Shown here in pieces: positions 3,241 to 50,785 of a stretch of 60,610 nucleotides of DNA (the first letter of the stretch is position 1; each line of letters begins with the position of its first letter). The notes under the pieces are model-generated. The model was not told where the DNA came from and made no database searches. It saw only the letters and a list, made by a program, of their open reading frames with translations. A program made the translations under genes and the position numbers. Source of the stretch: Escherichia phage Pondi; the sequence record OP136151.1, one strand, 5' to 3'.

Positions 3241-4521
3241 TTAACGTTTAATTGCTGGGGCGGTTCTGCCCTGCGTCAGACCTGAGAAGGCTGCCAACTT
3301 AGCGTCCATTGAAGACGGGCTGCGGCCACCATCCGGTACTGCTGCTTTTTTCGGCGCTTCGCTTTCACGTTGCGCACCGCTACCCAGCACGGTTTGACCT
3401 ACCTGACTCTTACGAGCTTCAACTGCTGCTGCGCGCGAGTTAACCTGCTGCGTTGTGGTAACCTGTTGACCAGTATAACCTAAAGCCGCTGCCAGTTCAC
3501 GAGCTTCGTTACGTGCCATAGTTGCTGCGCGCACCATGATGTCCAGAGGACGGATGTTGTTATCGCGAGCATTACTTTCACGTACCAGTTGCTGAGCGTA
3601 CTGCGCTGCTTTAGCACTGAGTGCCGGGTTACCGACCACATCTGCATATTGCGGATCAGACTCGTAAGCCTGTGCGTCAACTTGCAGGGAGTGATCCCAT
3701 GCTTTACGGTTTTGCTCTACGATTACTTGCTGAACAACCTGAGTGGTATCAACCTGTGGGATGGCCTGTTGGCGTCCTTTTGCCAGGGTATCTACTAGCT
3801 CGTCCAGTGCGCTATCGTCGCCTTCGTTATAAAGGCGTTCAAAACCTTGTCGCAATTTCGCTTTCAGATCAGGGTCAGCGTCCGTACTGGATGGCTGTTG
3901 AGTCTGTTGCGAGGCCAGTCGTAATTGTTCAAGTTCAGCACGTTCGCGTTCTAAACGCTGGCGTTCTTCTGCGGCCTGGCGCAACCGCTCGTCACCTGCT
4001 TCCAGCTTTTGGGCTGCCGCGATAACGCGTGAAGCATCGACTACTTGAACTTTGCCATTTACCAGAAGTTCAACTTTCTGGTTACCGTTGGCGTCGGTGA
4101 AGAAGCGAGGGGCATTGTTATCCACTTGCGGCGCGGCTTCCTGCTGCACCTGAGCTTCCTGCTCTACCTCTGTTCCTTCTTCCTGTACCTGATTGTCCTG
4201 ACTTTCTTCATCGTTGTCAAGACCGTAAAGGTCGAAACCTTCATCTGCACCTTCAGCTAAGTGCTGACGGCGACGTTCGGCGATGCTGGCGAGGAAGTCT
4301 TCGGAATCTTTTGCCTGAGCGGCTTGGTTTTCGCGCACCCGATCAGAGATACTTTTCTTGGCCTCGGCGGTTTGCTCTACGGTATCCAGATTATCACTGG
4401 CTCCATCGATTTCTTGCTGGGTAAATCCAGCGGCCACGGCTGCTGCGTTGTTCTCTTCAATGACCTGTTGCGGCGATACTTCGGTTGCTTTACGGGTCAT
4501 GGCGTCCTGTTGGATAGTCAT
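3241..4521 (-). CDS. Scaffolding protein, 426 aa
   Basis: Highly acidic, Gln/Glu/Ala-rich with predicted coiled coils (ERQRLERERAELEQLRL); lies between portal and capsid genes; ATGA overlap with upstream gene. Confidence 0.65.
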   Translation of the reverse strand: MTIQQDAMTRKATEVSPQQVIEENNAAAVAAGFTQQEIDGASDNLDTVEQTAEAKKSISDRVRENQAAQAKDSEDFLASIAERRRQHLAEGADEGFDLYGLDNDEESQDNQVQEEGTEVEQEAQVQQEAAPQVDNNAPRFFTDANGNQKVELLVNGKVQVVDASRVIAAAQKLEAGDERLRQAAEERQRLERERAELEQLRLASQQTQQPSSTDADPDLKAKLRQGFERLYNEGDDSALDELVDTLAKGRQQAIPQVDTTQVVQQVIVEQNRKAWDHSLQVDAQAYESDPQYADVVGNPALSAKAAQYAQQLVRESNARDNNIRPLDIMVRAATMARNEARELAAALGYTGQQVTTTQQVNSRAAAVEARKSQVGQTVLGSGAQRESEAPKKAAVPDGGRSPSSMDAKLAAFSGLTQGRTAPAIKR

Positions 4522-4916
4522 GCTGTTTCTCCGTCTTCATCTAACTGCTGGTTGTCTAACTGCTGCTTGCTGCTTTCCTTTTCTTCAATCTGAGCGCCAA
4601 TCGTTTCATAGATTTTGATGACGGTCAGGCAGGCAATCTGTGCCTCTACAATTTCGCTAGTGTTCGCCGGGTTAGCTGTGAGTAATTTCTCAAAGCCTGC
4701 GGTGAACTGCTCGCGAAGGCGCACATCGAAATCTGCGCCCAGCAACGTTTGTGTAAAAAAGTGAGCGGCATCCTCACCGATGTTTATCTTACTGTAAAGA
4801 TAATTGACGGGCAAGGTATCCGACATCAAATCGTCTTGCCGCATGTCAATGTGGTTAATGTTGCGCGCATATATTACATGCGCGCTCGTAGGTGATTTAC
4901 TTGACGTTTGACTCAT
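4518..4916 (-). CDS. Hypothetical protein, 132 aa
   Basis: ORF between portal and scaffold; overlaps portal 3' end by 20 nt. Confidence 0.45.
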   Translation of the reverse strand: MSQTSSKSPTSAHVIYARNINHIDMRQDDLMSDTLPVNYLYSKINIGEDAAHFFTQTLLGADFDVRLREQFTAGFEKLLTANPANTSEIVEAQIACLTVIKIYETIGAQIEEKESSKQQLDNQQLDEDGETA

Positions 4917-7278
4917 TGATGACTTCCTGCTGAGTAGGCGTTACCTGCTGGCCGATTTGCTGGGCCTGCTGCATCGCCGTCTGCTGCAATGAGCTTCCGT
5001 GCTGGAGTGCGGTGGTCTGACGCTTGGTCTTGTCCTGTGCTTCGGCAATCCGTAGCCGGGTTTCATTATCCAGCATAGACAGCAACATATCAAGCTGACC
5101 GCGCTTACCTTCCAGTTCTGCGTCGAGTGCCATCTGAATCAGCTTCAGTTCGCGGTCGGCGGCCAGTTGGTTGGCTTGCTTGGTTAACTCCAGTTCAGCT
5201 TTAATCTGCGCTTCCTGCACGCGACCTTTCGCTTCTTCCTGCGCAGCCTGTACCAGCGGATCAACTGGTGGTTCTGACGGAGGCGGCTCCTGGAAGTTCT
5301 TAGCCAGATTCGGGAAGAATTTACTACCGTCGCCCTGACCGAGTGTTGAGAAGATAGCGCTACCGACGGCTTTGCTATCCATGTTGTCAGCCATGCCCGG
5401 TAACTGCATTACCGTCGTAACACCGTACATCAACGTGTTTACACGCTGTACCGGGTCAGTTGCGCCAATACCGGTATCGACTTTCATCTCAAGCTGTTTG
5501 GTCATGAGATCGTCGGTCAGGTCTTCCACGTTGAGGCGCGGGAAGTATGCCGAGTTGTCGACGGCGATGTGCATGATCGTCTCGTCGTTCTCATAATACT
5601 GAACGGTGAGCATGAACAGTTCCAGCACCGGGCGCACGAAGGTGAACACGAAGGTACGGATGTCGAAGTCGTTCACTTTGGTAGCGGCGTTGCTGAGCAA
5701 CTTCATACCACCGACAGTCTCGTTCATCTCGCGGTTGTTGGCTACAGCCTGGCCGCTGAAGGTACCCTGTGCTTCGTTCATCTCCATAGTCAGGCGCTGA
5801 GTTTCCTCATAGCTGCTACTGGTGACGTCGTTCACTTCCTGCGGGATCAGGTCGCCAGCCGGGTCGCTGGTGAAGATTACACCGCCCGGAGTGGAGCGTG
5901 TCAGAGCGGCCAGGTCGATAGATGCACCGCGACGCGCCAGGTAACGCTTGTTCAGTACGAGCTTAACGTTGTCTACGCGCTGGTTGCTGATTTCGTTCAC
6001 TGCGCGCTGCAACTCGCTACCGATATGGGCTTTGGAGTCCGGCACGTTGTTGTGAGATTCAATCATGCAGGTACCGTAGACGAACGGCAGGCGACCGTGG
6101 TGATAGCGGTCCTTCAGTTCTACAGGCTGCTCTAACAGGAACTGAGTACCCATCATGTGATAGGTGTACCAAAGACCATCACGGCGGACGAACACTTCGT
6201 TAACCATTACAGATTCGTAGCGGACATCGGCGTTGTCGTTGTTGATTGGGTCCGGCTTACCTTCACCGCGCTTAGCCTGCTGCGTTGCGTCGTCTTCCAT
6301 CGCCCAGCGGCACGTCAGGATTTCACCTTCGGAAAGCAGGTTCCACTCGCCGCGTTCCATACGCACCATGACGTCATCAACGGACATCATTTTTCTGTGT
6401 ACGAAATACTTGCCAGTACCGACAACATCGTTCGCTTTCGCGGTTGGGTCGAAGATAAAGTTTTCCGGCAGGATCAGGTCGATGTACGGCTCGTCGTGAA
6501 TAACGTTTTCAGTCTTAGTCGTCTCCAGACCAATCAGGTTACCCGCTTCATCGAATACCGGAGTGTCGGTCGTAGTGGTTGTGGTTTCGCGCCACCAGAA
6601 AACTTTAGCGATTGCTGGCCCATTGATGAATGAGTCCTGCGCAGCACCGATACAAATCGGGTACCAGATTTTATCCAGACGAAGGTTTACGATTTCCTTC
6701 AGCACTGCCGCCGCTTTATCCGCATCCTGGTCGGTTACGTTGCGTGGCGAAATGTGCATGTAGTCATCGTTCAGGAAAAGCGCGGTTGCGATGTCTGCTT
6801 CCCAGCTACGGGAGGCCATGCGGGTTAACGGGCGGAAAACTTTCGAGCGGTTGCGGAACGCTTCGCTGTAATATTTGCTGCCCGGTTCGTGGCGACCTTT
6901 GAACAGGTAAGTGTCGTTGATGTGCTGCGTCTGGTAGCCCTGACGATAGAAGGTGCGCCCGGTGTCATAGCAACGACGACCGAGGTCAATCCACTGGGTT
7001 TCAGACATGCCAGCAACGCCGGAGTCGTCCGGTTGATTATAGGTTTGTTCTTCGGCTTGCAGGACATCGCCTTCCTTCTCGAACTGGGAGAATGAGTCCA
7101 TCTCACCGAAGGATGCCTGATTGATGTCCAGTTCAGCGCCGGGGATAATCTGGTTAGCGCGGTACGGGTCGTCGTTTACCTGCGTAATCCCGCGAGCACC
7201 ACCGCCGCCGTAAGGCGACTGGGTGTCCGGCGCGCGACCAACGAGGGAATCACTGATCCCTTTTTGTGCGTTCGGCAT
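4897..7278 (-). CDS. Portal protein (putative), 793 aa
   Basis: Large ORF between terminase and scaffold/capsid genes, the canonical portal position; GAGGA RBS. Confidence 0.6.
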   Translation of the reverse strand: MPNAQKGISDSLVGRAPDTQSPYGGGGARGITQVNDDPYRANQIIPGAELDINQASFGEMDSFSQFEKEGDVLQAEEQTYNQPDDSGVAGMSETQWIDLGRRCYDTGRTFYRQGYQTQHINDTYLFKGRHEPGSKYYSEAFRNRSKVFRPLTRMASRSWEADIATALFLNDDYMHISPRNVTDQDADKAAAVLKEIVNLRLDKIWYPICIGAAQDSFINGPAIAKVFWWRETTTTTTDTPVFDEAGNLIGLETTKTENVIHDEPYIDLILPENFIFDPTAKANDVVGTGKYFVHRKMMSVDDVMVRMERGEWNLLSEGEILTCRWAMEDDATQQAKRGEGKPDPINNDNADVRYESVMVNEVFVRRDGLWYTYHMMGTQFLLEQPVELKDRYHHGRLPFVYGTCMIESHNNVPDSKAHIGSELQRAVNEISNQRVDNVKLVLNKRYLARRGASIDLAALTRSTPGGVIFTSDPAGDLIPQEVNDVTSSSYEETQRLTMEMNEAQGTFSGQAVANNREMNETVGGMKLLSNAATKVNDFDIRTFVFTFVRPVLELFMLTVQYYENDETIMHIAVDNSAYFPRLNVEDLTDDLMTKQLEMKVDTGIGATDPVQRVNTLMYGVTTVMQLPGMADNMDSKAVGSAIFSTLGQGDGSKFFPNLAKNFQEPPPSEPPVDPLVQAAQEEAKGRVQEAQIKAELELTKQANQLAADRELKLIQMALDAELEGKRGQLDMLLSMLDNETRLRIAEAQDKTKRQTTALQHGSSLQQTAMQQAQQIGQQVTPTQQEVINESNVK

Positions 7279-7288
7279 CTCTTAATCC

Positions 7289-7657
7289 TCAGTTTAAACC
7301 AATGATATTACCACGAATGTCGCGCTTGGCTTCTACCAGTTCATGCTCGCGCATACGTCCACGATGCAGCTTAGCGCGTTCCAGGATTTCACCGCCAGCG
7401 CGGAGCACCAGCTTTTTGGCCGCGACAGGTTCTTCCAGATCGGCAATCATCAACGTAGCGCCGGACTCATAGGACACGTCGCCACACAGGATGTTGACGA
7501 TACCACCCTCAATCTCAGCGTTTACACGCCACAGGTAGCCGGAGTATGCGTTATGCAGGCACTCACCAATGATGGAGGCCAGTTCATAGTTTGCAATCTC
7601 GATGGCGTCACTACCTGTACCGCGCGTGTAAATTACTGCATGGTTAACTGTTGTCAT
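7289..7657 (-). CDS. Hypothetical protein, about 122 aa
   Basis: ATG at 7657 (third codon of track ORF, which begins with TTG) with AAGGA upstream. Confidence 0.45.
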   Translation of the reverse strand: MTTVNHAVIYTRGTGSDAIEIANYELASIIGECLHNAYSGYLWRVNAEIEGGIVNILCGDVSYESGATLMIADLEEPVAAKKLVLRAGGEILERAKLHRGRMREHELVEAKRDIRGNIIGLN

Positions 7658-7832
7658 TATCAATATCCTTAGTCCAACGATAGTCGTGACCCGGTAGCGT
7701 CGGCATCTCGGTCTTCACCTTTCCGTTGTCGAAGACGTACACCGCTTCGGGCGTAGTCAGTCGCTTCGGGTCCAGGCGATTCACGATTTCAGTGAAGCTG
7801 CGGGTTGTGTATGAAACTTGACGTCCTGCCAT
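7644..7832 (-). CDS. Hypothetical protein, 62 aa
   Basis: Small ORF with GGAGGT RBS 6 nt upstream of ATG. Confidence 0.45.
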   Translation of the reverse strand: MAGRQVSYTTRSFTEIVNRLDPKRLTTPEAVYVFDNGKVKTEMPTLPGHDYRWTKDIDNDNS

Positions 7833-19602: not shown

Positions 19603-19788
19603 ATGGCCTGGGCTTACTGTGAGCACTGCGGCGCGCCAGTAGCGCAACCTACCGCACGCGAAATACTGAAAGAAGAAGTCTATTGTTTATCTGGTTGCGG
19701 TAGACCTCAAACCGTACGCGGTGACACACGCAACGATGCTATAGACGAACTGTTCGACCGTCTGGAAAGCCTGGAGAAACGACCGTGA
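19603..19788 (+). CDS. Small zinc-ribbon protein, 61 aa
   Basis: CEHCG...C..GCG (CxxC-x20-CxxxC) pattern. Confidence 0.4.
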   Translation: MAWAYCEHCGAPVAQPTAREILKEEVYCLSGCGRPQTVRGDTRNDAIDELFDRLESLEKRP

Positions 19789-20021
19789 TCGACTTTATGA
19801 AACTGCTGGAAATGGTACACATCGACGGTTTCCGCTGTGAAATCTCAAGCGATGATGATCGTGTTACGTTTGTCTGGCGTGGTTACGATGATGTGCTGGG
19901 TCAAACGTATGGCGTGTCACGCGTTGTCAGTAAGGTAATGATCACTCAGGCGATGGTGCCGGAAGATGTGATCGAACGCCTGGTTGACTGTGCGCGTAAA
20001 GGTCTGGAGAAGATGCAATGA
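19785..20021 (+). CDS. Hypothetical protein, 78 aa (GTG start)
   Basis: GGAG-N8-GTG; GTGA overlap upstream and ATGA overlap downstream. Confidence 0.45.
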   Translation: MIDFMKLLEMVHIDGFRCEISSDDDRVTFVWRGYDDVLGQTYGVSRVVSKVMITQAMVPEDVIERLVDCARKGLEKMQ

Positions 20022-20719
20022 TCCTCTGGTTCCTGTGTGACGGGTCCGGCCTGATGGGTCAGCCGTGGGCGGAGGCGGGTCACACCGTCTACTGCTTCAA
20101 CGCGGACGAGGGCGACCACGGGCCTTATACCCGCTTCGGGTGCCGTGTGGAGCATCCAAACATTCACTACATCAACACCTGGATTGACAGTAAGTTTGTG
20201 ATGAAAGCGATGGCGACCAGTGGCGATAAACCTGATTTAATATTTGCTTTCCCACCGTGCACGGATATTGCCGTATCAGGTGCCCGACACTTCGCCGCTA
20301 AGCTGGCAGCTAACCCAGCGTGTCAGGATGACGCTGTAGCAACTGCGCGCATTGCTGAGCGTTTGGGGCGGTGGTTCAACGTGCCTTACATGATTGAAAA
20401 CCCGGTCAGCGTGATGGCCTCACTGTGGCGCAAACCTGATTTCACTTTCCACCCGTGGGAGTTCTCCGGGTATCTGCCGGAAGGAGATATGCACCCGTTT
20501 TTCCCGGACCTGATTGCAGGTCGGGATCAGTACCCGAAAAAGACTTGCCTGTGGACTGGTAACGGCTTTAAGTATCCGAAGAAACTCCCGGTACCCATTC
20601 CGCCAGGGTACAGCGATCAGTTCCACAAGCTGGGCGGCAAGTCTGCAAAGACAAAAACCATCCGATCACTAACCCCGCGCGGCTTCGCACTCGCGGTATA
20701 TCAAGCAAATAAGGATTAA
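20018..20719 (+). CDS. Putative DNA (cytosine-5)-methyltransferase-like protein, 233 aa
   Basis: Motif I-like WFLCDGSGLMG, catalytic Pro-Cys motif FAFPPCTDIAVSG, ENV-like YMIENPV and GNG motif in the order expected for C5-MTases; short target-recognition region. Confidence 0.45.
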   Translation: MILWFLCDGSGLMGQPWAEAGHTVYCFNADEGDHGPYTRFGCRVEHPNIHYINTWIDSKFVMKAMATSGDKPDLIFAFPPCTDIAVSGARHFAAKLAANPACQDDAVATARIAERLGRWFNVPYMIENPVSVMASLWRKPDFTFHPWEFSGYLPEGDMHPFFPDLIAGRDQYPKKTCLWTGNGFKYPKKLPVPIPPGYSDQFHKLGGKSAKTKTIRSLTPRGFALAVYQANKD

Positions 20720-44165: not shown

Positions 44166-47100
44166 TTAAAACAACATCCAATATTTGTCACTCAATTCTT
44201 TCGCCAGTTCGTTCTTCTTGACCTGCAAGGCATCCAGTTCTGCACGCTTCGCTTCAGGTGACATACCGTCGTTCGCGTAAATCTCTTTCGTCTGGCGGTT
44301 GTACTTCTGCATCCGGGCAACGCCTTTCTCAATTGACTTACGGGCAGACAACACGCTGGCCTTCTCGGTCTTAAACTCCCGATACGCCTGCATGTTCTTC
44401 TGGTCTTTGTACGCCTTCAGGGTACCGTACGTTTGACCAGCCTTCTCGCTCATCTGGTACAGACGGTCGGTGTATTTGTCGCCGGACACACCGCCACGTA
44501 CGAAAGTTTTTACCACCGGGTAATCAAAATCCTTTTTAGCCGGGGCAACTTTTTCGGTACCCGTTCCTTTGCGATAGGCCACGTCCGTTACACCGACGAT
44601 GTACTGACCGACTGTCCCGGTGTAACCCTCAATCATATGCTGGAGACGCAGCGGACTACGCATCCATTCCGGGGCAGCTTCAGGTAACGCCTTGCTCATA
44701 TCCTTAATCCACTCAGGCGTCGTGGTGCTGTGCTGCTGGTTAGCTTCCAGACGTTGCAGTGACTGCGGTACGATTGGACGCTGAGTAAAGCTATTCATGT
44801 TGGTCTGGTCTTCGTAGATCGGCTTGAAGAACTGAGGCCAGTCTGCCGCAAACGTGTTAGACAACATGAAGCCCAGGCGTGCACCAAACATACGGTCGTC
44901 ACGGTACAGCGCTTCGAATGCACGCTCAGGAATAGTGCCGAACAGTGCGCCCAGTTCGAACGGTTTCGGGATACGGTAGCGAGTGTCGCCAGCGAAGATG
45001 ATCCAGAAGGAATCACGCTCATGTTCTGGCAGCGCCCAGTAACGTTCGTCGTCCGCGTTCATTGCCATAAGGGCCATCGTTGCACCAACAAGTAGAGCAC
45101 CTTTCAGCATGAACGCTTTCGGGTTCTCTTTACCACCACGTACCATACGGTCCAGACCCTGCACACGGGCATTCAGGAACGGTATCATCGCCATCGCTGC
45201 TTTGGTTACACGGCTGCTACCACGGCGGCTGAAGTTCAGCACATCGTTAGACTGGTATGCAGCTTCCACCGGATCGCCAGTGTGCTTCAGGACGTCTTCG
45301 TACACACCCATGCGAGTGGCCTGTTCGGATGCCGTCAGCAACTTACTGTACATTTCCCACAGCTTCTTAGGTGAGTTAACGATGGTGCCGCCTTTCTCCA
45401 GCTTGCGCAGGTTTTTGGCAACCGACTCAGGACGGGAGTTATCGTAACCGCCCATCATGCCGCCAGCGACGTGGTAGTCGACAGCCATCGAGTCGTTGCG
45501 GATGGAACGCATCGCACCCTGGAACGCTTTGAAGAACGGGCGGAACGTCAGGACGTCTTTAGTGATAGCAGACATTCCGTTGCGGCCAGCGGCTTTAGTC
45601 ATCTGCACATAGTTACCCATTACGTCACGCACGAAGTTGGTCATAACGAAGTTAGGCGTTGACGTCACGGCTGCTGTGAATACACGTTTAGGCCAGCCGA
45701 GAATGTTGATGAGGGTATCGACGGCTTCCGGGCCAACACCTGCGATTGCTTCCAGCAACTGCGGGTCGGTCACTTCGTAATACTTCGCCTTGCCACCTTC
45801 ACGCACGGAGATAATGTTAGCGCCCTGCGGTGCTACTGCGGTGAACAGGTTGGAGTATTGCGCCATCTGCTCAGCGGTCATACCTTCAACCTTCAGGCCC
45901 AGGTTGGTCAGCGCACGTTTCATCTGCTCGTTGCTGATACCGACAGGCTTGAAGTTGTGCGGCACTTCTTCCAGCGCTGCGTTGATGGTAATGTCGCGCA
46001 CCTTCTGCATGGCCGCGTTCTTGTAGCCGGACGAGATCATGTGGTTAACGTTACGCGCCATGTTCTCCAGGATGTCCATTTTACCAGCGCCACCCTTCAG
46101 ACGGCGGATGCCGGAAGACTGATCAGCGAGGCCACGTTTTCCAGACGGTGCTGTTACACGGTCCACTTCCTCATCCACACGGTAGAACGGAACGTAGTCG
46201 TCGGATTCGAACAGTTTACGCTGCTCAGGATCTACGATGCCAGTTTGCTCACCGAAGTCGAGGATGGCTTTGTTAAACTCACGCCAGTCTTTGTGCGCCT
46301 GGTTGAATACCTTACGCATTTCCGGGCGACGGTTAACATAGTCGATGATGTCTTTAATCTGCTTCTCGGTGTACAGGTTTTCGCGGCCTTCTTCCATCAA
46401 GCGTTTGGCACGCACAGCACCCGCCCAGTATTCCCACACTGGCAGCATATTACCTTTCATCTCCAGCACTGGATTGAAGATTTCAGTGAAGCCTTTGGTG
46501 TTCTTGTTCAGGCTGATGCCACCGTCTTTGTATACCGGAGCGCCGTGGTTCATTGCGACGGCCACGGTGCTGTTCACGTTCTTCGCCAGCATTGCCATCT
46601 TGTACGCCGACTCTTTACCCTGACGCAGTTCACCGTTGTTACCAGCCTTCTCATATTTGGCGATGGTGTACAGGTCATCCACGCCTTTCTGATACAAGCC
46701 TTCCATCGTCAGACCGTTGTCTTTCATGATGTCTTTGATGCGCTGGAACAGAGAGCGGTCATCGCGGTACATGGTGTCACGCATACCCTGCTTGATGTCT
46801 TCGTCCACTTCCGCAGACTCGATGTCGTTTTTCTTTTTCAGGCTGGCGGCAAAGTTACGCGGCGCGCTGTACTGCATCGGCGGCAGAGATTTACGCACGT
46901 CGTCACGGTTGACAGTGTTGTCACGCAGGTACTGAGCATTGGCCTGAATAAGCTGGCGTACAGACTCCATGCTGGCGCGACCGTCAATCAGCTTGGCTTT
47001 AATCATCAACTGACGCAGAGCTTCCAGCACGCGGGTAATGACGTTGGACTTCTCCAGGATAGCTGGGTTTTCCGCAGCCAGCGCTAGGACTTCTTCAGCC

Positions 47101-50100
47101 ATCATACGCTGCGCGTCAGGTGACGACATGTCGTACAGTTCGCTGTAGCTCTCGCGCACTTCTTTGAAATACTTCGCCAGCGCCGGGGACTTATCGGCGG
47201 CCAGGATTTTATCCATCTCAGCGTCGTATTCCGGTTTAGACAGGCGAGCACGCAGACCGTAGTGTACGACAATCTCATGACGCAACAGAGCTTCCACTTC
47301 TTCCTTGCTGGTCAGGTTTTCGGAGATCAGTTTAGCGCTCACGTTGCCAGCGTCATAGAAGCCGAGCAGGACGCTACCTTCCGGCAGGTCGATACCCATA
47401 TCTTCCTGACGCTGCATGACGGTCATGTCTACAGCCTGCGCGCCTTTGAACTTCTTCAGGAAGTCGGCGGCAACCACAGCCACATCTTCCGGTGACATAC
47501 CTTGCTTATCAGACGCAGGTTTAACGCTGGCAGCACCGGACTGTTTGTCAATCTTACGCTTAGCGTAGTCCTTACCGAAAATCTCACGACGACCTTTTGA
47601 GTCTTCAGTAGCCAGGTACGTGTCGTGGATAGACTTAACGGTGAACGTCTCGCCGTCTTCCTCGAAAGTCTTACCTACCAGCGTGTGATAGTCGACATTA
47701 GGGGTAACGTCCGGCTTGTCAGTCTTCTTCGGTACGCGAGCTTCTTTGTAGGCCACGTAATGTTTGGCTGGCGCTGACATGTCACGGGAGTCAACCTTAT
47801 CACCACGGGCATACGCGCGGTCGATGGTTTCCTTCAGTGTGATACCGTCAGGTTGCATCTTCTCCAGGGCGCGGACGTAGTTGCGACGTACCAGTGGCTT
47901 CATACCACGTGTGAAATCTTCCAGTGACTTCTCGAAAGATTCAGTGCGCGCGGCAGACTTCTCACGCAGACGGTCAGCCGTCGCCTGACTTTCTTTACTC
48001 AGACCTTTCGGTGACGGTTCAGCGATACTGGACATGCGTTCTTCCAGTTCCTTACGCATGGTCGCGCGAGTCTTACCTTTCAGTGGCGCGTACAGATGAC
48101 GGTCGGATTCCGGTACCTGCGTTTCCATAGCGGCCAGGGTCTCACGCACTTTGTTCAGCGGACGCTTGGTATCGTTGACTTCATGCAGCACACCTTGCAG
48201 CGTATTAGCGTTGACACGGCTTTCCGAAGACATCCCTAAACGATCACCTTTGCCCGGCGCGTCCATCACGTTGCTGTCACCACCGCGACGAATCATGACA
48301 TCGCCGTTGTCCAGCACGAAGCGACGACCTTGCACACCAGTGATCTTGCGGACTTCACCGTGGGAGTCTTTCGCATACTTCCCGTCCAGGTCGGTACCTT
48401 CCACTGGCCCAAAACCAACACGACCTTCAACGTCGGTAACGCGAGTAGACTCACCTTCGATTGCGGCGTTATCCTTTTCCTTCTCTGCGATCATCTCACC
48501 CAGGTCACGCTGGACTTCGGCAGACTGCGCCAGTACATCGTCGGTCGCCTGCTGTGCATCGGTAACCATCTCACCCAGGTTGCGCTCGTCTTCGAACTCT
48601 ACAGGGGCTAGGTCATAACGCTCACGGGCATCTTTGGTTTCCTGAGACACACGCTTCATACCTTCCGGTACCACAGACGGCACGTTGATTTCACGGGCGT
48701 CGACAATGTGACCGTTGCCGTTCTCATCAACCAGACGTACAGCGCGGCCCTGGAATTTATCGACGGAATACTCCTTGCCGTTCCAGTTCACTTTGTTGCC
48801 GACGTCAACGCCACGCTCGTTGGCTTCCTTCAGGATCTTGTTGGTAACCTGAATAGCTGGCTGCTTCTTGCCAGGTAACGCCGGACGCACAGATTCACGC
48901 TCGATGTATTTCGCTACAGCCTCGTCACCTTTCGCCTTTAGTTCTGCCTGACGTGCTTCTTCGGCGGCCAGCGCTTCTGTATCGACTTCTGGCGCGGCTT
49001 TCTTTTTGGTACGGGCAAACAGTGCTGACTTCGGTTTAACCTCGGCAGCGGCTGGCTCAGCGGCGGGAACGGTCGGTTCCAGTGCAGCGGCTACGTCAAT
49101 CTGCGGCAGCGGCGGTGGAGTCACTTTATCTTTCGGCGGCAGTGCTGGCGGTACCACAGCTTCGGTAACCTGCGGTAATGCTGGCGCTTCCAGTTTCTGC
49201 TGTACTGCTGCCAGTACCGGAGACTCTTCAGCGACACCGCGTGGATTGTAACCAGTGGCCTCTTTAACCTGCGCAACTGGACCGGGCATAGCGATGGTGG
49301 AAGTTTGCCCCGGAGACGGCAGACCTTTAGTTTCACCCGGCAGCGGACCGACGTCACCCTGCGCTACCTGCTGCTGTACCATCTGAGCTACAGACTGCGG
49401 TGCGTTAGTGGCGCTCGCCTTGTTCGCATAGTAGATAGAGTCCGGGGAGTCGAATAGTTCGCTGACCATCTGATCCATAGCGTCGACTTCACCGACATCA
49501 CGGGATGCGGCCATCGCTTCAGCCGGAGACATACCCTGAGCGCGCGCTTCCATGTAGGCAGACTTGCGAGCTTCAGTGATTGCAGGAGACGCCTGTTCAA
49601 CCATCTGGTCCAGCACGTCACCGCCGCCCATCTCAGCACGCACAGCGTCGTATTCGTTCGGGTCCACACCTTCAACAGCCTGACCGGACTCAGCCGCAGC
49701 GTCACCGATAGCGTTGTTAACAGAGCGGTTATCCTTCCAGTCTTTGACCATGCCGGGAGCTTGCACCGCGCCATGCAGAGTAGCACCTACGCCAGCACCA
49801 GTTACACCGGAGAACGCCACGTCATTCAGGAACTGGCCTACCGTCATGTCTTCGTCGAGCACGCCGATGTCGTAACCATTCTGGATAGCCTGGGTAGCGG
49901 ATTCCTGAATACCTTCAGCTATTGCAGATTTGCCGAGATCAGTAAGGCTGTGGGCACCTTTCTTCATGATGAGGCCCAGCGGTACCGCTTCAGTAATCGG
50001 TTCCAGTGCGGCGAACATGGTTGCGCGGTTGTCGGCTTCTGCCGGAGACAGACCTTTGTCGATTGAGTCCTGATAGTAGGAACCGTACGCCTGACCAGTC

Positions 50101-50744
50101 ATCTCAGCGAGGCCAGCGACCGGGCGCTTCAACAGGATGGACGTCAGGATTGCCGGAGACATGTCCTGCGCGCCCGTGAGGATTGTGGATACCAGGTTTT
50201 TAGCTGACCACTCGTCGCCAGTCTTCGGTGCAGTTTTGGCAATTTCGTTTGACAGGCGAAGACCTTCGTCACGCGCGGCAACAAAGTCGGCATCCTTATT
50301 CAGTTCTGCGGCCTTCGCTTTATCAATAGCGGCGTAGAGAGCTTTATTCTTTTGCAGTTTGGTCGCATACGTGTCGCCTTCGGCAGCGGTAAAGGTAGCT
50401 GGGTCAATCCCCAGTTCGGCAGCATATGACGGATCGTTACGCAGGCGTTCAGCCAGCACCCCGTCAGTCAGGTCTTGACCTTTGACGGCCACGCCTTGTT
50501 TGATACCCTGCCATGAACGTTGCATACGCTCAGGCATCGCGGCGAGAGATTTGTAAATTACGTCGCCCCAACTATCTTCTTTTGCTGGTTCTGTGACGGC
50601 TGTCTCACTTCCGATACCGGAAAAGTCTACGTCACCCAGGTCGAAGTTAACTGTCGACAGGTCGATGTCAGATTTAGGTTTTGATGCAGGTTGTTGATTT
50701 GGCTGGGATAAGTCCAGTCCAGAAAGGTCGATGTTGCTTGCCAT
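44166..50744 (-). CDS. Giant virion-associated protein, about 2192 aa (putative internal/ejection protein; function unknown)
   Basis: Start at ATG 50744 preceded by AGGGGGAG (track ORF extends 13 codons further); last gene of the late operon; no Walker A, RNA polymerase or peptidase motif recognised by eye. Confidence 0.6.
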   Translation of the reverse strand: MASNIDLSGLDLSQPNQQPASKPKSDIDLSTVNFDLGDVDFSGIGSETAVTEPAKEDSWGDVIYKSLAAMPERMQRSWQGIKQGVAVKGQDLTDGVLAERLRNDPSYAAELGIDPATFTAAEGDTYATKLQKNKALYAAIDKAKAAELNKDADFVAARDEGLRLSNEIAKTAPKTGDEWSAKNLVSTILTGAQDMSPAILTSILLKRPVAGLAEMTGQAYGSYYQDSIDKGLSPAEADNRATMFAALEPITEAVPLGLIMKKGAHSLTDLGKSAIAEGIQESATQAIQNGYDIGVLDEDMTVGQFLNDVAFSGVTGAGVGATLHGAVQAPGMVKDWKDNRSVNNAIGDAAAESGQAVEGVDPNEYDAVRAEMGGGDVLDQMVEQASPAITEARKSAYMEARAQGMSPAEAMAASRDVGEVDAMDQMVSELFDSPDSIYYANKASATNAPQSVAQMVQQQVAQGDVGPLPGETKGLPSPGQTSTIAMPGPVAQVKEATGYNPRGVAEESPVLAAVQQKLEAPALPQVTEAVVPPALPPKDKVTPPPLPQIDVAAALEPTVPAAEPAAAEVKPKSALFARTKKKAAPEVDTEALAAEEARQAELKAKGDEAVAKYIERESVRPALPGKKQPAIQVTNKILKEANERGVDVGNKVNWNGKEYSVDKFQGRAVRLVDENGNGHIVDAREINVPSVVPEGMKRVSQETKDARERYDLAPVEFEDERNLGEMVTDAQQATDDVLAQSAEVQRDLGEMIAEKEKDNAAIEGESTRVTDVEGRVGFGPVEGTDLDGKYAKDSHGEVRKITGVQGRRFVLDNGDVMIRRGGDSNVMDAPGKGDRLGMSSESRVNANTLQGVLHEVNDTKRPLNKVRETLAAMETQVPESDRHLYAPLKGKTRATMRKELEERMSSIAEPSPKGLSKESQATADRLREKSAARTESFEKSLEDFTRGMKPLVRRNYVRALEKMQPDGITLKETIDRAYARGDKVDSRDMSAPAKHYVAYKEARVPKKTDKPDVTPNVDYHTLVGKTFEEDGETFTVKSIHDTYLATEDSKGRREIFGKDYAKRKIDKQSGAASVKPASDKQGMSPEDVAVVAADFLKKFKGAQAVDMTVMQRQEDMGIDLPEGSVLLGFYDAGNVSAKLISENLTSKEEVEALLRHEIVVHYGLRARLSKPEYDAEMDKILAADKSPALAKYFKEVRESYSELYDMSSPDAQRMMAEEVLALAAENPAILEKSNVITRVLEALRQLMIKAKLIDGRASMESVRQLIQANAQYLRDNTVNRDDVRKSLPPMQYSAPRNFAASLKKKNDIESAEVDEDIKQGMRDTMYRDDRSLFQRIKDIMKDNGLTMEGLYQKGVDDLYTIAKYEKAGNNGELRQGKESAYKMAMLAKNVNSTVAVAMNHGAPVYKDGGISLNKNTKGFTEIFNPVLEMKGNMLPVWEYWAGAVRAKRLMEEGRENLYTEKQIKDIIDYVNRRPEMRKVFNQAHKDWREFNKAILDFGEQTGIVDPEQRKLFESDDYVPFYRVDEEVDRVTAPSGKRGLADQSSGIRRLKGGAGKMDILENMARNVNHMISSGYKNAAMQKVRDITINAALEEVPHNFKPVGISNEQMKRALTNLGLKVEGMTAEQMAQYSNLFTAVAPQGANIISVREGGKAKYYEVTDPQLLEAIAGVGPEAVDTLINILGWPKRVFTAAVTSTPNFVMTNFVRDVMGNYVQMTKAAGRNGMSAITKDVLTFRPFFKAFQGAMRSIRNDSMAVDYHVAGGMMGGYDNSRPESVAKNLRKLEKGGTIVNSPKKLWEMYSKLLTASEQATRMGVYEDVLKHTGDPVEAAYQSNDVLNFSRRGSSRVTKAAMAMIPFLNARVQGLDRMVRGGKENPKAFMLKGALLVGATMALMAMNADDERYWALPEHERDSFWIIFAGDTRYRIPKPFELGALFGTIPERAFEALYRDDRMFGARLGFMLSNTFAADWPQFFKPIYEDQTNMNSFTQRPIVPQSLQRLEANQQHSTTTPEWIKDMSKALPEAAPEWMRSPLRLQHMIEGYTGTVGQYIVGVTDVAYRKGTGTEKVAPAKKDFDYPVVKTFVRGGVSGDKYTDRLYQMSEKAGQTYGTLKAYKDQKNMQAYREFKTEKASVLSARKSIEKGVARMQKYNRQTKEIYANDGMSPEAKRAELDALQVKKNELAKELSDKYWMLF

Positions 50745-50785
50745 TAGAAATGCTCCCCCTTGTTGATAGGGGAAGCATAGCATAT

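Follow-up and report, generated by a model that had tools for sequence, protein, structure and literature searches.

A compact orphan DNA cytosine-C5 methyltransferase of the phage Dcm-like family in the genome of Escherichia phage Pondi

Results

The methyltransferase gene and its surroundings

The window referred to throughout is the whole stretch of DNA that was analysed, 60,610 nucleotides from Escherichia phage Pondi (OP136151.1). The coding sequence of a compact orphan DNA cytosine-C5 methyltransferase (C5-MTase) lies at 20018..20719 on the + strand, where it begins with ATG and specifies 233 amino acids plus a stop, exactly matching the original prediction made for this DNA. The strand opposite this interval contains many stops. 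A Shine-Dalgarno-like GGAG (20006..20009, + strand), read directly from the sequence, is found 8 nt before the ATG. The start codon and the stop codon of the upstream ORF overlap in the ATGA at 20018-20021, an arrangement that suggests translational coupling. According to the ORF map, the gene sits inside a long, polycistronic block of small genes on the + strand, which the original prediction placed in the early region. A scan for promoters and terminators between 11.5 and 29.5 kb yielded counts at the level expected by chance, and none of the candidates was specific to the methyltransferase gene.

Fold and superfamily assignment

The protein matches the PHROG 757 profile, 'DNA methyltransferase', with an E value of 1.1e-87; the match spans residues 1-232 of the protein and, of the 247 positions in the profile, 15-219. 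Its AF2 model (pLDDT 94.2, pTM 0.91) has the Class I SAM-MTase fold. The structurally nearest proteins are DNA C5-MTases, the closest folds being those of the DNMT3 enzymes, and DNA C5-MTases outscore both DNMT2 and RNA m5C MTases. When the family profile was used for alignment, the region from motif I through motif IV was in register with DNMT2, M.HaeIII, DNMT3A (E 8e-5) and SpCmoX (E 1.7e-4), and motif IV through motif VI could be aligned with M.HhaI. Profiles and fold thus point to a C5-MTase rather than to an unrelated fold, and they agree with the literature on homologues, described below, in bearing out the original reading of the gene as that of a compact C5-cytosine MTase.

Pfam PF00145, the profile to which that reading had been referred, gave a divided answer. 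The window protein alone did not reach the gathering score of 22 bits and had no NCBIfam match, whereas three relatives that are 60-63% identical to it (P0012, P0046 and P0079) passed with 24.7-28.5 bits, in alignments that covered motifs I-IV only; at E<=1, the profile was matched by 11 of the 79 family members. A sequence-only search of the PDB with the window protein returned no match. Matches to Lipoprotein_15 and to phosphopantetheinyl-transferase (E 0.12-0.66) were rejected as chance.

Catalytic motifs

Conservation was counted among 79 homologues, whose identity to the query ranges over 32-74%. The residues that are invariant in this set (C81, E127, P129, P146, W179 and P187) are all present in the window protein, which also keeps every near-invariant residue of the family.

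Motif I, F5-L-C-D-G-S-G11 (20030..20050, + strand), was located by profile alignment as the SAM-binding loop after strand beta1. Its counterparts are SLFSGAGG in M.HaeIII, LYSGIGG in DNMT2, SLFDGIATG in DNMT3A and TFAGGGG in SpCmoX. The F-x-G-x-G loop is present, with C7-D-G9-S-G11 aligned to F-S-G-A-G of M.HaeIII; within the family L6 (75/79) and G11 (63/79) are well kept, and the first glycine, G9, is variable. Motif IV, F78-P-P-C81-T-D-I-A-V-S-G88 (20249..20281, + strand), carries the catalytic nucleophile Cys81, whose codon is 20258-20260. This cysteine aligns with the catalytic Cys of M.HaeIII, DNMT2, DNMT3A, M.HhaI and SpCmoX (PPC/SPC/FPC); P79, T82 and G88 are conserved in at least 90% of the homologues and F78 in 71 of the 79. 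Motif VI, I126-E127-N-P129-V in strand beta5 (20393..20407, + strand), pairs with ENV in M.HhaI and DNMT3A but has Pro in place of the Val (N128 is found in 75/79). In C5-MTases the motif VI glutamate, which corresponds to Glu127, contacts the target cytosine.

Family conservation and the strands of the model (142-144 and 176-181) define a region like motifs VII and VIII, P146...Y172-x-K174-x-T176-C-L-W179-T-G-N-G183 (20453..20566, + strand), in which Y152, Y172, K174 and T176 are each kept in at least 90% of the 79 homologues. A conserved insertion of ~17 residues separates beta6 from beta7. The canonical Q-x-R-x-R of motif VIII was not found; Y172-x-K174-x-T176 occupies its place in strand beta7, and the Lys of this sequence may substitute for the motif VIII Arg.

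The four strings quoted in the original prediction (F5-L-C-D-G-S-G11, F78-P-P-C81, E127-N-P129 and G181-N-G183) are all present. The assignments of the first three as motif I, FPPC and ENP stand as true C5-MTase motifs, but G181-N-G183 is not motif X. It directly follows strand beta7 (the model strand 176-181), its central residue N182 is unconserved (N in 37/79, G in 24/79), and it looks like the 'FWGN' that closes motif VIII of DNMT3A.

The reduced target-recognition region and the C-terminal motif

Classical enzymes have a sizeable target-recognition domain (TRD) that separates motifs VIII and IX and is followed by motif X (G-N), an order that is not found here: beyond beta7 there are only ~34 residues and then a single conserved motif at the C-terminus. 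The claim that the protein is much shorter than classical enzymes, with almost no TRD, is therefore sound. The sole segment that could serve as a TRD is the 'mini-TRD', F184-I215 (about 32-34 residues; 20567..20662, + strand), which in the predicted model consists of a loop and two short helices and which varies in both sequence and length across the family, except for P187 and an L-G-G.

The C-terminal motif is R216-S217-L-T219-P220-R221-G222-F-A-L-A226-V...N231 (20663..20710, + strand) and includes the final helix, residues 221-231 of the model. It is strongly conserved in the family (R216 78/79, S217 72/79, P220 75/79, G222 77/79). Judged by its residues, it resembles motif IX (R-x-L-T-P-R-E-x-A-R-L) more than motif X; when the segment was aligned with RKLHPRECARV of M.HhaI, the E value was 0.16, which is not significant. 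Neither family conservation nor segment alignments revealed a recognisable G-N motif X in the window protein. The mapping of this end of the protein employed hhalign in local and global mode and with cut-out segments against M.HhaI, DNMT3A and SpCmoX, as well as a profile of 121 CmoX-family sequences. These alignments lent support to motifs I-VI only, and those of the C-terminal part were non-significant (E 0.16-0.45) and mutually contradictory. The candidate partners of R216 that emerged from them, R350 of CmoX (an Arg in the place of the motif X Asn) or R891 of DNMT3A, come from conflicting alignments.

Relatives described in the literature

Phage KarlJaspers (Bas06) encodes a homologue, bas06_0055 (236 aa, 711-bp gene), that is annotated as 'Dcm-like C5 cytosine methyltransferase' and is 53% identical to the window protein over its full length (E 3e-88). 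The genome of phage K42 is 95.4% identical to that of KarlJaspers, and its dcm is likewise 711 bp. Published work showed that expression of K42 dcm alone raises 5mC in the msDNA of retron Ec86, as determined by LC-MS, and triggers the retron. A C82A/E128A/K175A/K176A mutant, in which K175 and K176 were chosen as substrate-binding residues, caused neither the rise in msDNA 5mC nor the triggering. The residues C82, E128, K175 and K176 of the K42/Bas06 Dcm correspond to C81, E127, K174 and K175 of the window protein, which moreover has N28 and W55-I-D57, variants found in the active K42/Bas06 subgroup. The 78-aa ORF upstream of the gene was considered as a possible specificity partner and rejected, given that the K42 enzyme works alone; no homologue of this ORF was detected beside the Bas06 methyltransferase gene or elsewhere within the initial 50 kb of that phage's genome.

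The closest orthologue is gp66 of phage PTXU04 (HOV50_gp66 / PTXU04_00066; 'DNA methyltransferase'), with 74.6% amino acid identity. Published annotation by HHpred describes gp66 as a 'cytosine DNA methyltransferase', and CRISPRi-ART scored it as 'Not Fit', i.e. dispensable. The gene immediately downstream is 93% identical between the window and PTXU04, and the greater divergence of the methyltransferase suggests mosaic exchange.

Size, spread and orphan status of the family

A large protein database contains 6404 homologues, and the family comprises 1161 clusters at 50% identity. A tblastn search matched 1511 GenBank phage records, 1474 of them with coverage of at least 80%. Few accessory genes are thus more common in enterobacterial phages. 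The representatives listed are mostly about 210-260 aa, the exceptions being fragments and some longer proteins, so that the shortness that the original prediction had implied to be unusual is the norm in a very large phage family.

The gene is judged to be an orphan, as the loci compared gave no sign of a cognate restriction endonuclease or a conserved partner gene; the window and Bas06 share no conserved neighbour of the methyltransferase, and phage HelliStehle lacks the gene in its syntenic block. A search of bacterial genomes with the single protein gave no match, and a tighter family alignment found only 12 loci there, mostly on MAG contigs. Two of these cellular copies were examined and are surrounded by prophage genes (RecT, primase-helicase, integrase), and no Pfam restriction-enzyme domain was detected in the ten neighbouring ORFs scanned around them. 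Because cellular loci are few and the two that were examined are prophage-like, restriction-enzyme neighbours offer no clue to specificity.

CCWGG sites and palindromes

The window contains 172 CCWGG sites, compared with 217 expected from a Markov model or 139 from a zero-order model. The sequence is thus neither avoided nor enriched, and its frequency says nothing decisive about specificity. Of the 64 possible six-bp palindromes, 21 are absent from the window. So extreme an avoidance shows that general protection in this phage lineage does not depend on methylation; HelliStehle, a relative, has been described as 'very sensitive to RM systems'. In the literature on the mapped specificity of the family, we found only indirect data on resistance to EcoRII, which are confounded by host Dcm: the DNA of Klebsiella phages KP36, KP15 and KP27 is resistant despite 155-279 sites. 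KP36-related phages (Webervirus) carry a homologue of the family, as determined by tblastn.

Discussion

The gene product, a member of the compact 'Dcm-like' phage family PHROG 757, is in our view highly likely to be an active orphan enzyme that uses SAM to methylate DNA cytosines at C5. By analogy with the published homologues, the enzyme would be expected to form 5mC, to trigger the retron and to be dispensable to the phage.

The mechanism that we propose follows established C5-MTase chemistry. The Rossmann-like domain would bind SAM through motifs I-III, and the target cytosine would be flipped out of the helix. Cys81 of FPPC would then attack C6 while Glu127 of ENP holds N3/N4, so that the methyl group is transferred to C5; Lys174 and Lys175 of the Y-x-K-x-T region would replace the arginines of motif VIII. 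Recognition of DNA in the absence of a full TRD would be left to the catalytic loop, the ~17-residue insertion between beta6 and beta7 and the ~34-residue loop that follows beta7. The most likely substrate of the enzyme is phage DNA during replication, and the site is probably CCWGG as for the host Dcm, a specificity that is suggested by analogy. The progeny would then be protected from 5mC-sensitive restriction of the EcoRII type in hosts that have no Dcm or that under-supply it. From its context, we infer the role of an orphan anti-restriction methylase, as had originally been proposed, which would make the gene an accessory one that is non-essential in the laboratory. The palindrome avoidance of the lineage and the sensitivity of HelliStehle to RM systems count against this reading. 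Possession of such an enzyme could also be a liability, as the homologous enzyme activates abortive infection by retron Ec86/Eco1 through methylation of its msDNA.

The specificity is the point on which another interpretation deserves the most attention. It is possible, if distinctly less probable than not, that the protein is a genuine DNA C5-methyltransferase whose specificity or substrate preference is unlike that of the host Dcm, and whose role would be something else than to duplicate the protection that Dcm affords. It might act on a shorter or relaxed motif, methylate the outer C in CCWGG, or favour hairpin or single-stranded DNA. In favour of this, the TRD has shrunk to about 34 residues, and the DNMT3 enzymes, whose folds are the closest, recognise only CpG. 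The K42 study took CCWGG over from E. coli Dcm as an assumption, without mapping it, and the experiments were carried out in dcm+ MG1655, where the msDNA contained little 5mC before expression of the phage enzyme. That the host Dcm did not bring about high msDNA methylation in this strain indicates that the phage enzyme differs from it in some property. On the other hand, Ec86 no longer defended against K42 once CCTGG in the stem of the msDNA had been mutated, and the EcoRII resistance of KP36-type phages fits CCWGG. Phages that carry the family are also said by the authors of the BASEL collection to plate on K-12 hosts with McrBC, which argues against frequent methylation of RmC. A wider departure, in which recognition is unconventional (through DNMT3-like dimers or the beta6-beta7 insertion), the specificity is non-Dcm or, least likely of these, carboxy-SAM is used via Arg216, seems to us unlikely.

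The remaining alternatives concern the reaction itself. In a CmoX-like carboxymethyltransferase, carboxy-SAM supplied by E. coli CmoA would be used to make 5-carboxymethylcytosine, instead of or besides 5mC. The described enzyme of this kind, SpCmoX of Synechococcus phage S-B43 (PDB 8yf3), is a DNA cytosine C5-carboxymethyltransferase that has 372 aa, including a full TRD, and its gene adjoins those of the Cx-SAM synthase CmoA and the ligase CmoY; the window has neither of these two, as SpCmoA and SpCmoY gave no tblastn match in it below E 0.1. The window protein also has FPPC and not SPPC, its R216 motif is closer to motif IX (R-x-L-T-P-R) than to motif X, and LC-MS detected 5mC made by the K42 homologue in cmoA+ cells. 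An Arg at this place would in any case not be diagnostic, because DNMT3A, a normal SAM enzyme, has G-R-S at what we take to be motif X. We therefore regard a carboxymethyltransferase as very improbable. Methylation of RNA (tRNA, in the manner of DNMT2) or of some other non-DNA substrate is extremely improbable. This corresponds to the alternative raised originally, of a PC-motif enzyme acting on another substrate, which has gained no positive support: DNA C5-MTases score above DNMT2 and the RNA m5C MTases, the homologue methylates DNA (msDNA) in vivo, and the only invariant cysteine is C81, with no conserved second cysteine of the NSUN/RsmB type. Nor does it seem credible that the protein is a catalytically dead relative or decoy that binds DNA or SAM without methylating. 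The missing Pfam match, the non-canonical motifs VIII and X and the dispensability of the PTXU04 orthologue would accommodate such a protein, but all invariant and near-invariant residues, C81 and E127 included, are kept, the N28 and W55-I-D57 variants are those of the active subgroup, and conservation across the 1161 clusters implies purifying selection on the catalytic residues.

An active DNA C5-methyltransferase thus remains the reading that we prefer. The family is already known and annotated, and one member has been studied experimentally; the finding is correct but ordinary, and it confirms annotation at the database level only. For phages with the gene, one would predict sensitivity to the Ec86/Eco1 retron found in E. 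coli strains of the B/BL21 type and, wherever sites are methylated, protection from restriction that 5mC blocks. With about 230 aa and hardly any TRD, the family also offers a naturally minimal C5-methyltransferase scaffold, whose study would have some interest for enzymology and for the development of epigenetic tools.

Classical C5-MTases such as M.HhaI, M.HaeIII and E. coli Dcm, the last of which has 472 aa, are about 100-240 residues longer than the window protein. They possess a full TRD, Q-x-R-x-R, ENV and G-N, whereas the window protein is without a full TRD and has Y-x-K-x-T and ENP; its compact arrangement is like that of the DNMT3 enzymes. Within the compact family, formation of 5mC and triggering of the retron have been demonstrated for the K42 enzyme alone. 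The KarlJaspers/K42 enzyme is of the same family, length and architecture and is likewise an orphan among small phage genes, but KarlJaspers is a siphovirus of the Drexlerviridae, the window phage is a Xuquatrovirus-like podovirus, and the flanking genes are unrelated. In PTXU04, by contrast, the orthologue gp66 occupies the same genomic position as the window gene and has the same neighbours.

The methyltransferase locus and its relatives

Translation reproduced both the protein sequence and the position of the predicted gene, an ORF of 233 aa that begins with ATG at 20018..20719 on the plus strand; the strand opposite is closed by stop codons. The ATG and the stop of an upstream 78-aa ORF overlap (ATGA), GGAG lies 8 nt before the start, and the downstream gene begins 4 nt past the methyltransferase stop. 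The overlap and the 4-nt gap place the gene inside a tightly packed block of small plus-strand genes. No promoter or terminator specific to the gene was found above chance, and an ARAGORN search of the whole window (1-60610) identified neither tRNA nor tmRNA genes.

The window is closely related to the 61.6-kb podovirus PTXU04, an Escherichia phage of the genus Xuquatrovirus, with 86% DNA identity in the 3 kb around the methyltransferase gene. The PTXU04 orthologue, gp66, has the same flanking genes and is labelled "DNA methyltransferase" in RefSeq; a CRISPRi-ART study called it "cytosine DNA methyltransferase" by HHpred and scored it "Not Fit", meaning that its knock-down carried no fitness cost. 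We compared window positions 19785-20719 with HelliStehle (Bas95) 3383-4272 and PTXU04 4787-6371. The syntenic block of HelliStehle contains neither the methyltransferase nor the upstream 78-aa ORF, but keeps the downstream 215-aa gene (63% identity), and the methyltransferase gene is, therefore, an accessory, exchangeable module. Its absence there, together with an identity to PTXU04 of 74.6% for the methyltransferase versus 93% for its downstream neighbour, points to a mosaic origin of this module. Elsewhere in the window, a 2205-aa ORF (44166-50783, minus strand) probably corresponds, judged by protein size, to gp25 of PTXU04, a "polyvalent protein" of 2198 aa for which the CRISPRi-ART screen reported an essential role (Fit).

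Fold and motifs of the compact enzyme

The window protein matched PHROG 757 ("DNA methyltransferase") over its full length (E 1.1e-87), and had no match in Pfam or NCBIfam and only chance matches in a PDB sequence search. The PF00145 profile thus gave no match to the protein itself but matched 11 of the 79 homologues in our alignment (32-74% identical to it) at E<=1, and three close relatives, 60-63% identical, passed the gathering score through motifs I-IV. Residues C81, E127, P129, P146, W179 and P187 are invariant in this alignment, and P79, T82, G88, K95, N128, Y152, Y172, K174 and T176, as well as R216, S217, P220, G222 and A226 in the C-terminal part, are nearly so; the window protein retains all of them. 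DNMT2 and M.HaeIII were among the four best, weak matches of the alignment profile to the PDB (E 0.4-0.5), in register from motif I to the Pro-Cys motif. Over the same stretch, hhalign gave E 8e-5 with DNMT3A and 1.7e-4 with the family of SpCmoX, the DNA cytosine C5-carboxymethyltransferase of Synechococcus phage S-B43, and motifs IV-VI aligned with M.HhaI at E 0.03; the reference sequences exactly match PDB chains 5yx2_A and 10mh_A.

An AlphaFold2 model built from the alignment is very confident (pLDDT 94.2, pTM 0.91), and its seven strands follow the order typical of class I methyltransferases. DNMT3A/B/C chains made up 33 of the 35 Foldseek matches in the PDB at E<1e-3, the others being 3g7u and one pre-60S ribosomal chain, and the best BFVD matches were family members named "DNA-cytosine methylase". 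Profiles and structure comparison, therefore, give a C5-methyltransferase fold and not an unrelated one. In two large BFVD proteins from uncultured phages, A0A6J5SE15_1 (1397 aa) and A0A6J5NPY6_2 (1126 aa), one of them labelled "Helicase/UvrB, N-terminal", the compact fold forms one domain (25-29% identity and TM ~0.66 to the model of 20018-20716); these may be polyvalent anti-defence proteins.

The motif strings noted originally are all present (F5-LCDGSG11, F78-PPC81, E127-NP129 and G181-NG183). In motif I, C7-D-G9-S-G11 is the counterpart of F-S-G-A-G in M.HaeIII by alignment, and only the second glycine is well conserved in the family. Motif IV, F-P-P-C81-T-D-I-A-V-S-G, resembles P-C-N-D-L-S of DNMT3A, and motif VI is I-E127-N-P, with E127 and P129 invariant. 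After beta6, P146-x-E-(Y/F)-G-G-Y parallels the motif VII sequence D-Y-G-V-P, and next comes a conserved insertion of ~17 residues that is specific to the family; on beta7, Y172-x-K174-x-T176-C-L-W179 takes the motif VIII position of Q-x-R-x-R. The GNG string lies directly after beta7, resembles F-W-G-N of DNMT3A and has N182 in only 37 of the 79 homologues, and is thus not motif X. The claim that almost no target-recognition domain (TRD) is left proved correct, as only ~34 residues, variable across the family, follow beta7 as a mini-TRD. Residues 216-231 (window 20663-20710) hold the near-invariant motif I-R216-S-x-T-P-R-G-F-A-x-A-V, followed by the final helix. Its pattern is closer to motif IX (R-x-L-T-P-R-E-x-A-R-L) than to motif X, and the protein ends 12 residues past it, so that the family may have no motif X at all, or the final helix may stand in for it; alignments of this segment were non-significant and mutually conflicting.

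Distribution of the family

Homologues were found by tblastn in 1511 GenBank phage records (full length in 1474), with labels that include "Dcm-like C5 cytosine methyltransferase"; a large protein database held 6404, and an exhaustive HMMER search gave 1161 clusters at 50% identity. The phages include Drexlerviridae, Dhillonvirus, Webervirus, Vequintavirinae and Krischvirus, and phages of Vibrio, Campylobacter, Shewanella and Arthrobacter. Although the protein is short, as originally remarked, its length is the family norm, since the cluster representatives listed have ~210-260 aa, fragments and a few longer proteins aside. A pattern-limited scan of 185,579 representative bacterial genomes gave only 12 loci. 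The two on long contigs sit among phage genes, one with RecT, a PDDEXK nuclease and a primase-helicase as neighbours and the other adjoining an integrase, and no Pfam restriction-enzyme domain was detected among the 10 neighbouring ORFs scanned at these two loci. Overall, the family occurs essentially in phages and as orphan genes.

At a prophage-like locus of an uncultured Gammaproteobacteria MAG contig (CAWAMN010000001.1, 3926-5706; integrase at 6566-7783), the gene directly after the homologue encodes a thymidylate-synthase-family protein of 331 aa (PF00303, E 2e-93) with an inserted segment. Such enzymes in phages can be pyrimidine hydroxymethylases, and the pairing might mark a different route of cytosine modification.

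Discussion

We consider the window protein to be, with high probability, an active orphan SAM-dependent DNA C5-methyltransferase. In the predicted mechanism, Cys81 would be the nucleophile, Glu127 and Lys174/175 would act at the flipped cytosine, and DNA recognition would fall to the catalytic loop together with the insertion between beta6 and beta7 and the mini-TRD. One alternative is a CmoX-like carboxymethyltransferase, given that SpCmoX is among the top structural matches, that its signature is S-P-P-C plus Arg in place of the motif X Asn (PMC12783734), and that the compact family has P-P-C and the near-invariant R216. However, the window protein has F-P-P-C and not S-P-P-C. No significant C-terminal alignment places R216 at the position of CmoX R350, CmoA and CmoY were not found in the window, and the product of the homologous phage K42 enzyme is 5mC. 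Moreover, DNMT3A, a SAM enzyme whose sequence matches its PDB chain, has G-R-S at what we take to be its motif X. We think that a carboxymethyltransferase is very unlikely, and an RNA methyltransferase or an inactive decoy would be, if anything, more unlikely still.

On indirect evidence, CCWGG is the target that we favour, if only slightly. Mutation of CCTGG in the msDNA stem abolished Ec86 defence (10.1101/2023.08.16.553469), and DNA of Klebsiella phages of the KP36 type and of KP15/KP27 is EcoRII-resistant despite 155-279 sites; KP36 relatives carry the compact family (tblastn, GenBank phages). The window keeps its 172 CCWGG sites, undepleted, while purging 21 of the 64 six-bp palindromes, among them CCCGGG, CTGCAG, GAATTC, GGATCC, GATATC, CCATGG, GGCGCC and TCCGGA. 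Palindromes account for 21 of the 77 hexamers absent from the window and total 562 against 925 expected (Markov), with TGGCCA at 1 versus 33 and AAGCTT at 2 versus 26; CTAG (16 versus 80) and GATC (169 versus 278) are also depleted. Type II restriction seems to be countered in this phage by site loss rather than by methylation. If the enzyme is active, a different or relaxed specificity is a serious, though less probable, possibility, because the Dcm motif was assumed, not mapped, in the K42 work, in a dcm+ host whose Dcm evidently methylated msDNA poorly (10.1101/2023.08.16.553469), and host Dcm is a confounder in the Klebsiella digests. The wider interest of the family lies in its sequence specificity, in how a TRD-less enzyme would recognize DNA and in the remote chance of an alternative cofactor; the combined reading of an unconventional enzyme along these lines we regard as improbable.

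The assignment as a cytosine methyltransferase is itself already known, since the same-genus orthologue carries it and a homologue with 53% identity has been studied experimentally. All escapers of retron Ec86 in phage K42, whose genome is 95.4% identical to that of KarlJaspers (Bas06), disrupt a 711-bp dcm gene; expressed alone, this gene is toxic only in retron-carrying cells and raises 5mC in msDNA (LC-MS), and its C82A/E128A/K175A/K176A mutant is inactive (10.1101/2023.08.16.553469). We located the KarlJaspers counterpart, bas06_0055 (711 bp, "Dcm-like C5 cytosine methyltransferase"), which is 53% identical to the window protein over the full length (E 3e-88). In the alignment, its C82, E128, K175 and K176 fall precisely opposite C81, E127, K174 and K175 of the window protein, and N28 and W55-I-D57, which deviate from the family consensus, are common to the window protein and the bas06_0055 subgroup.
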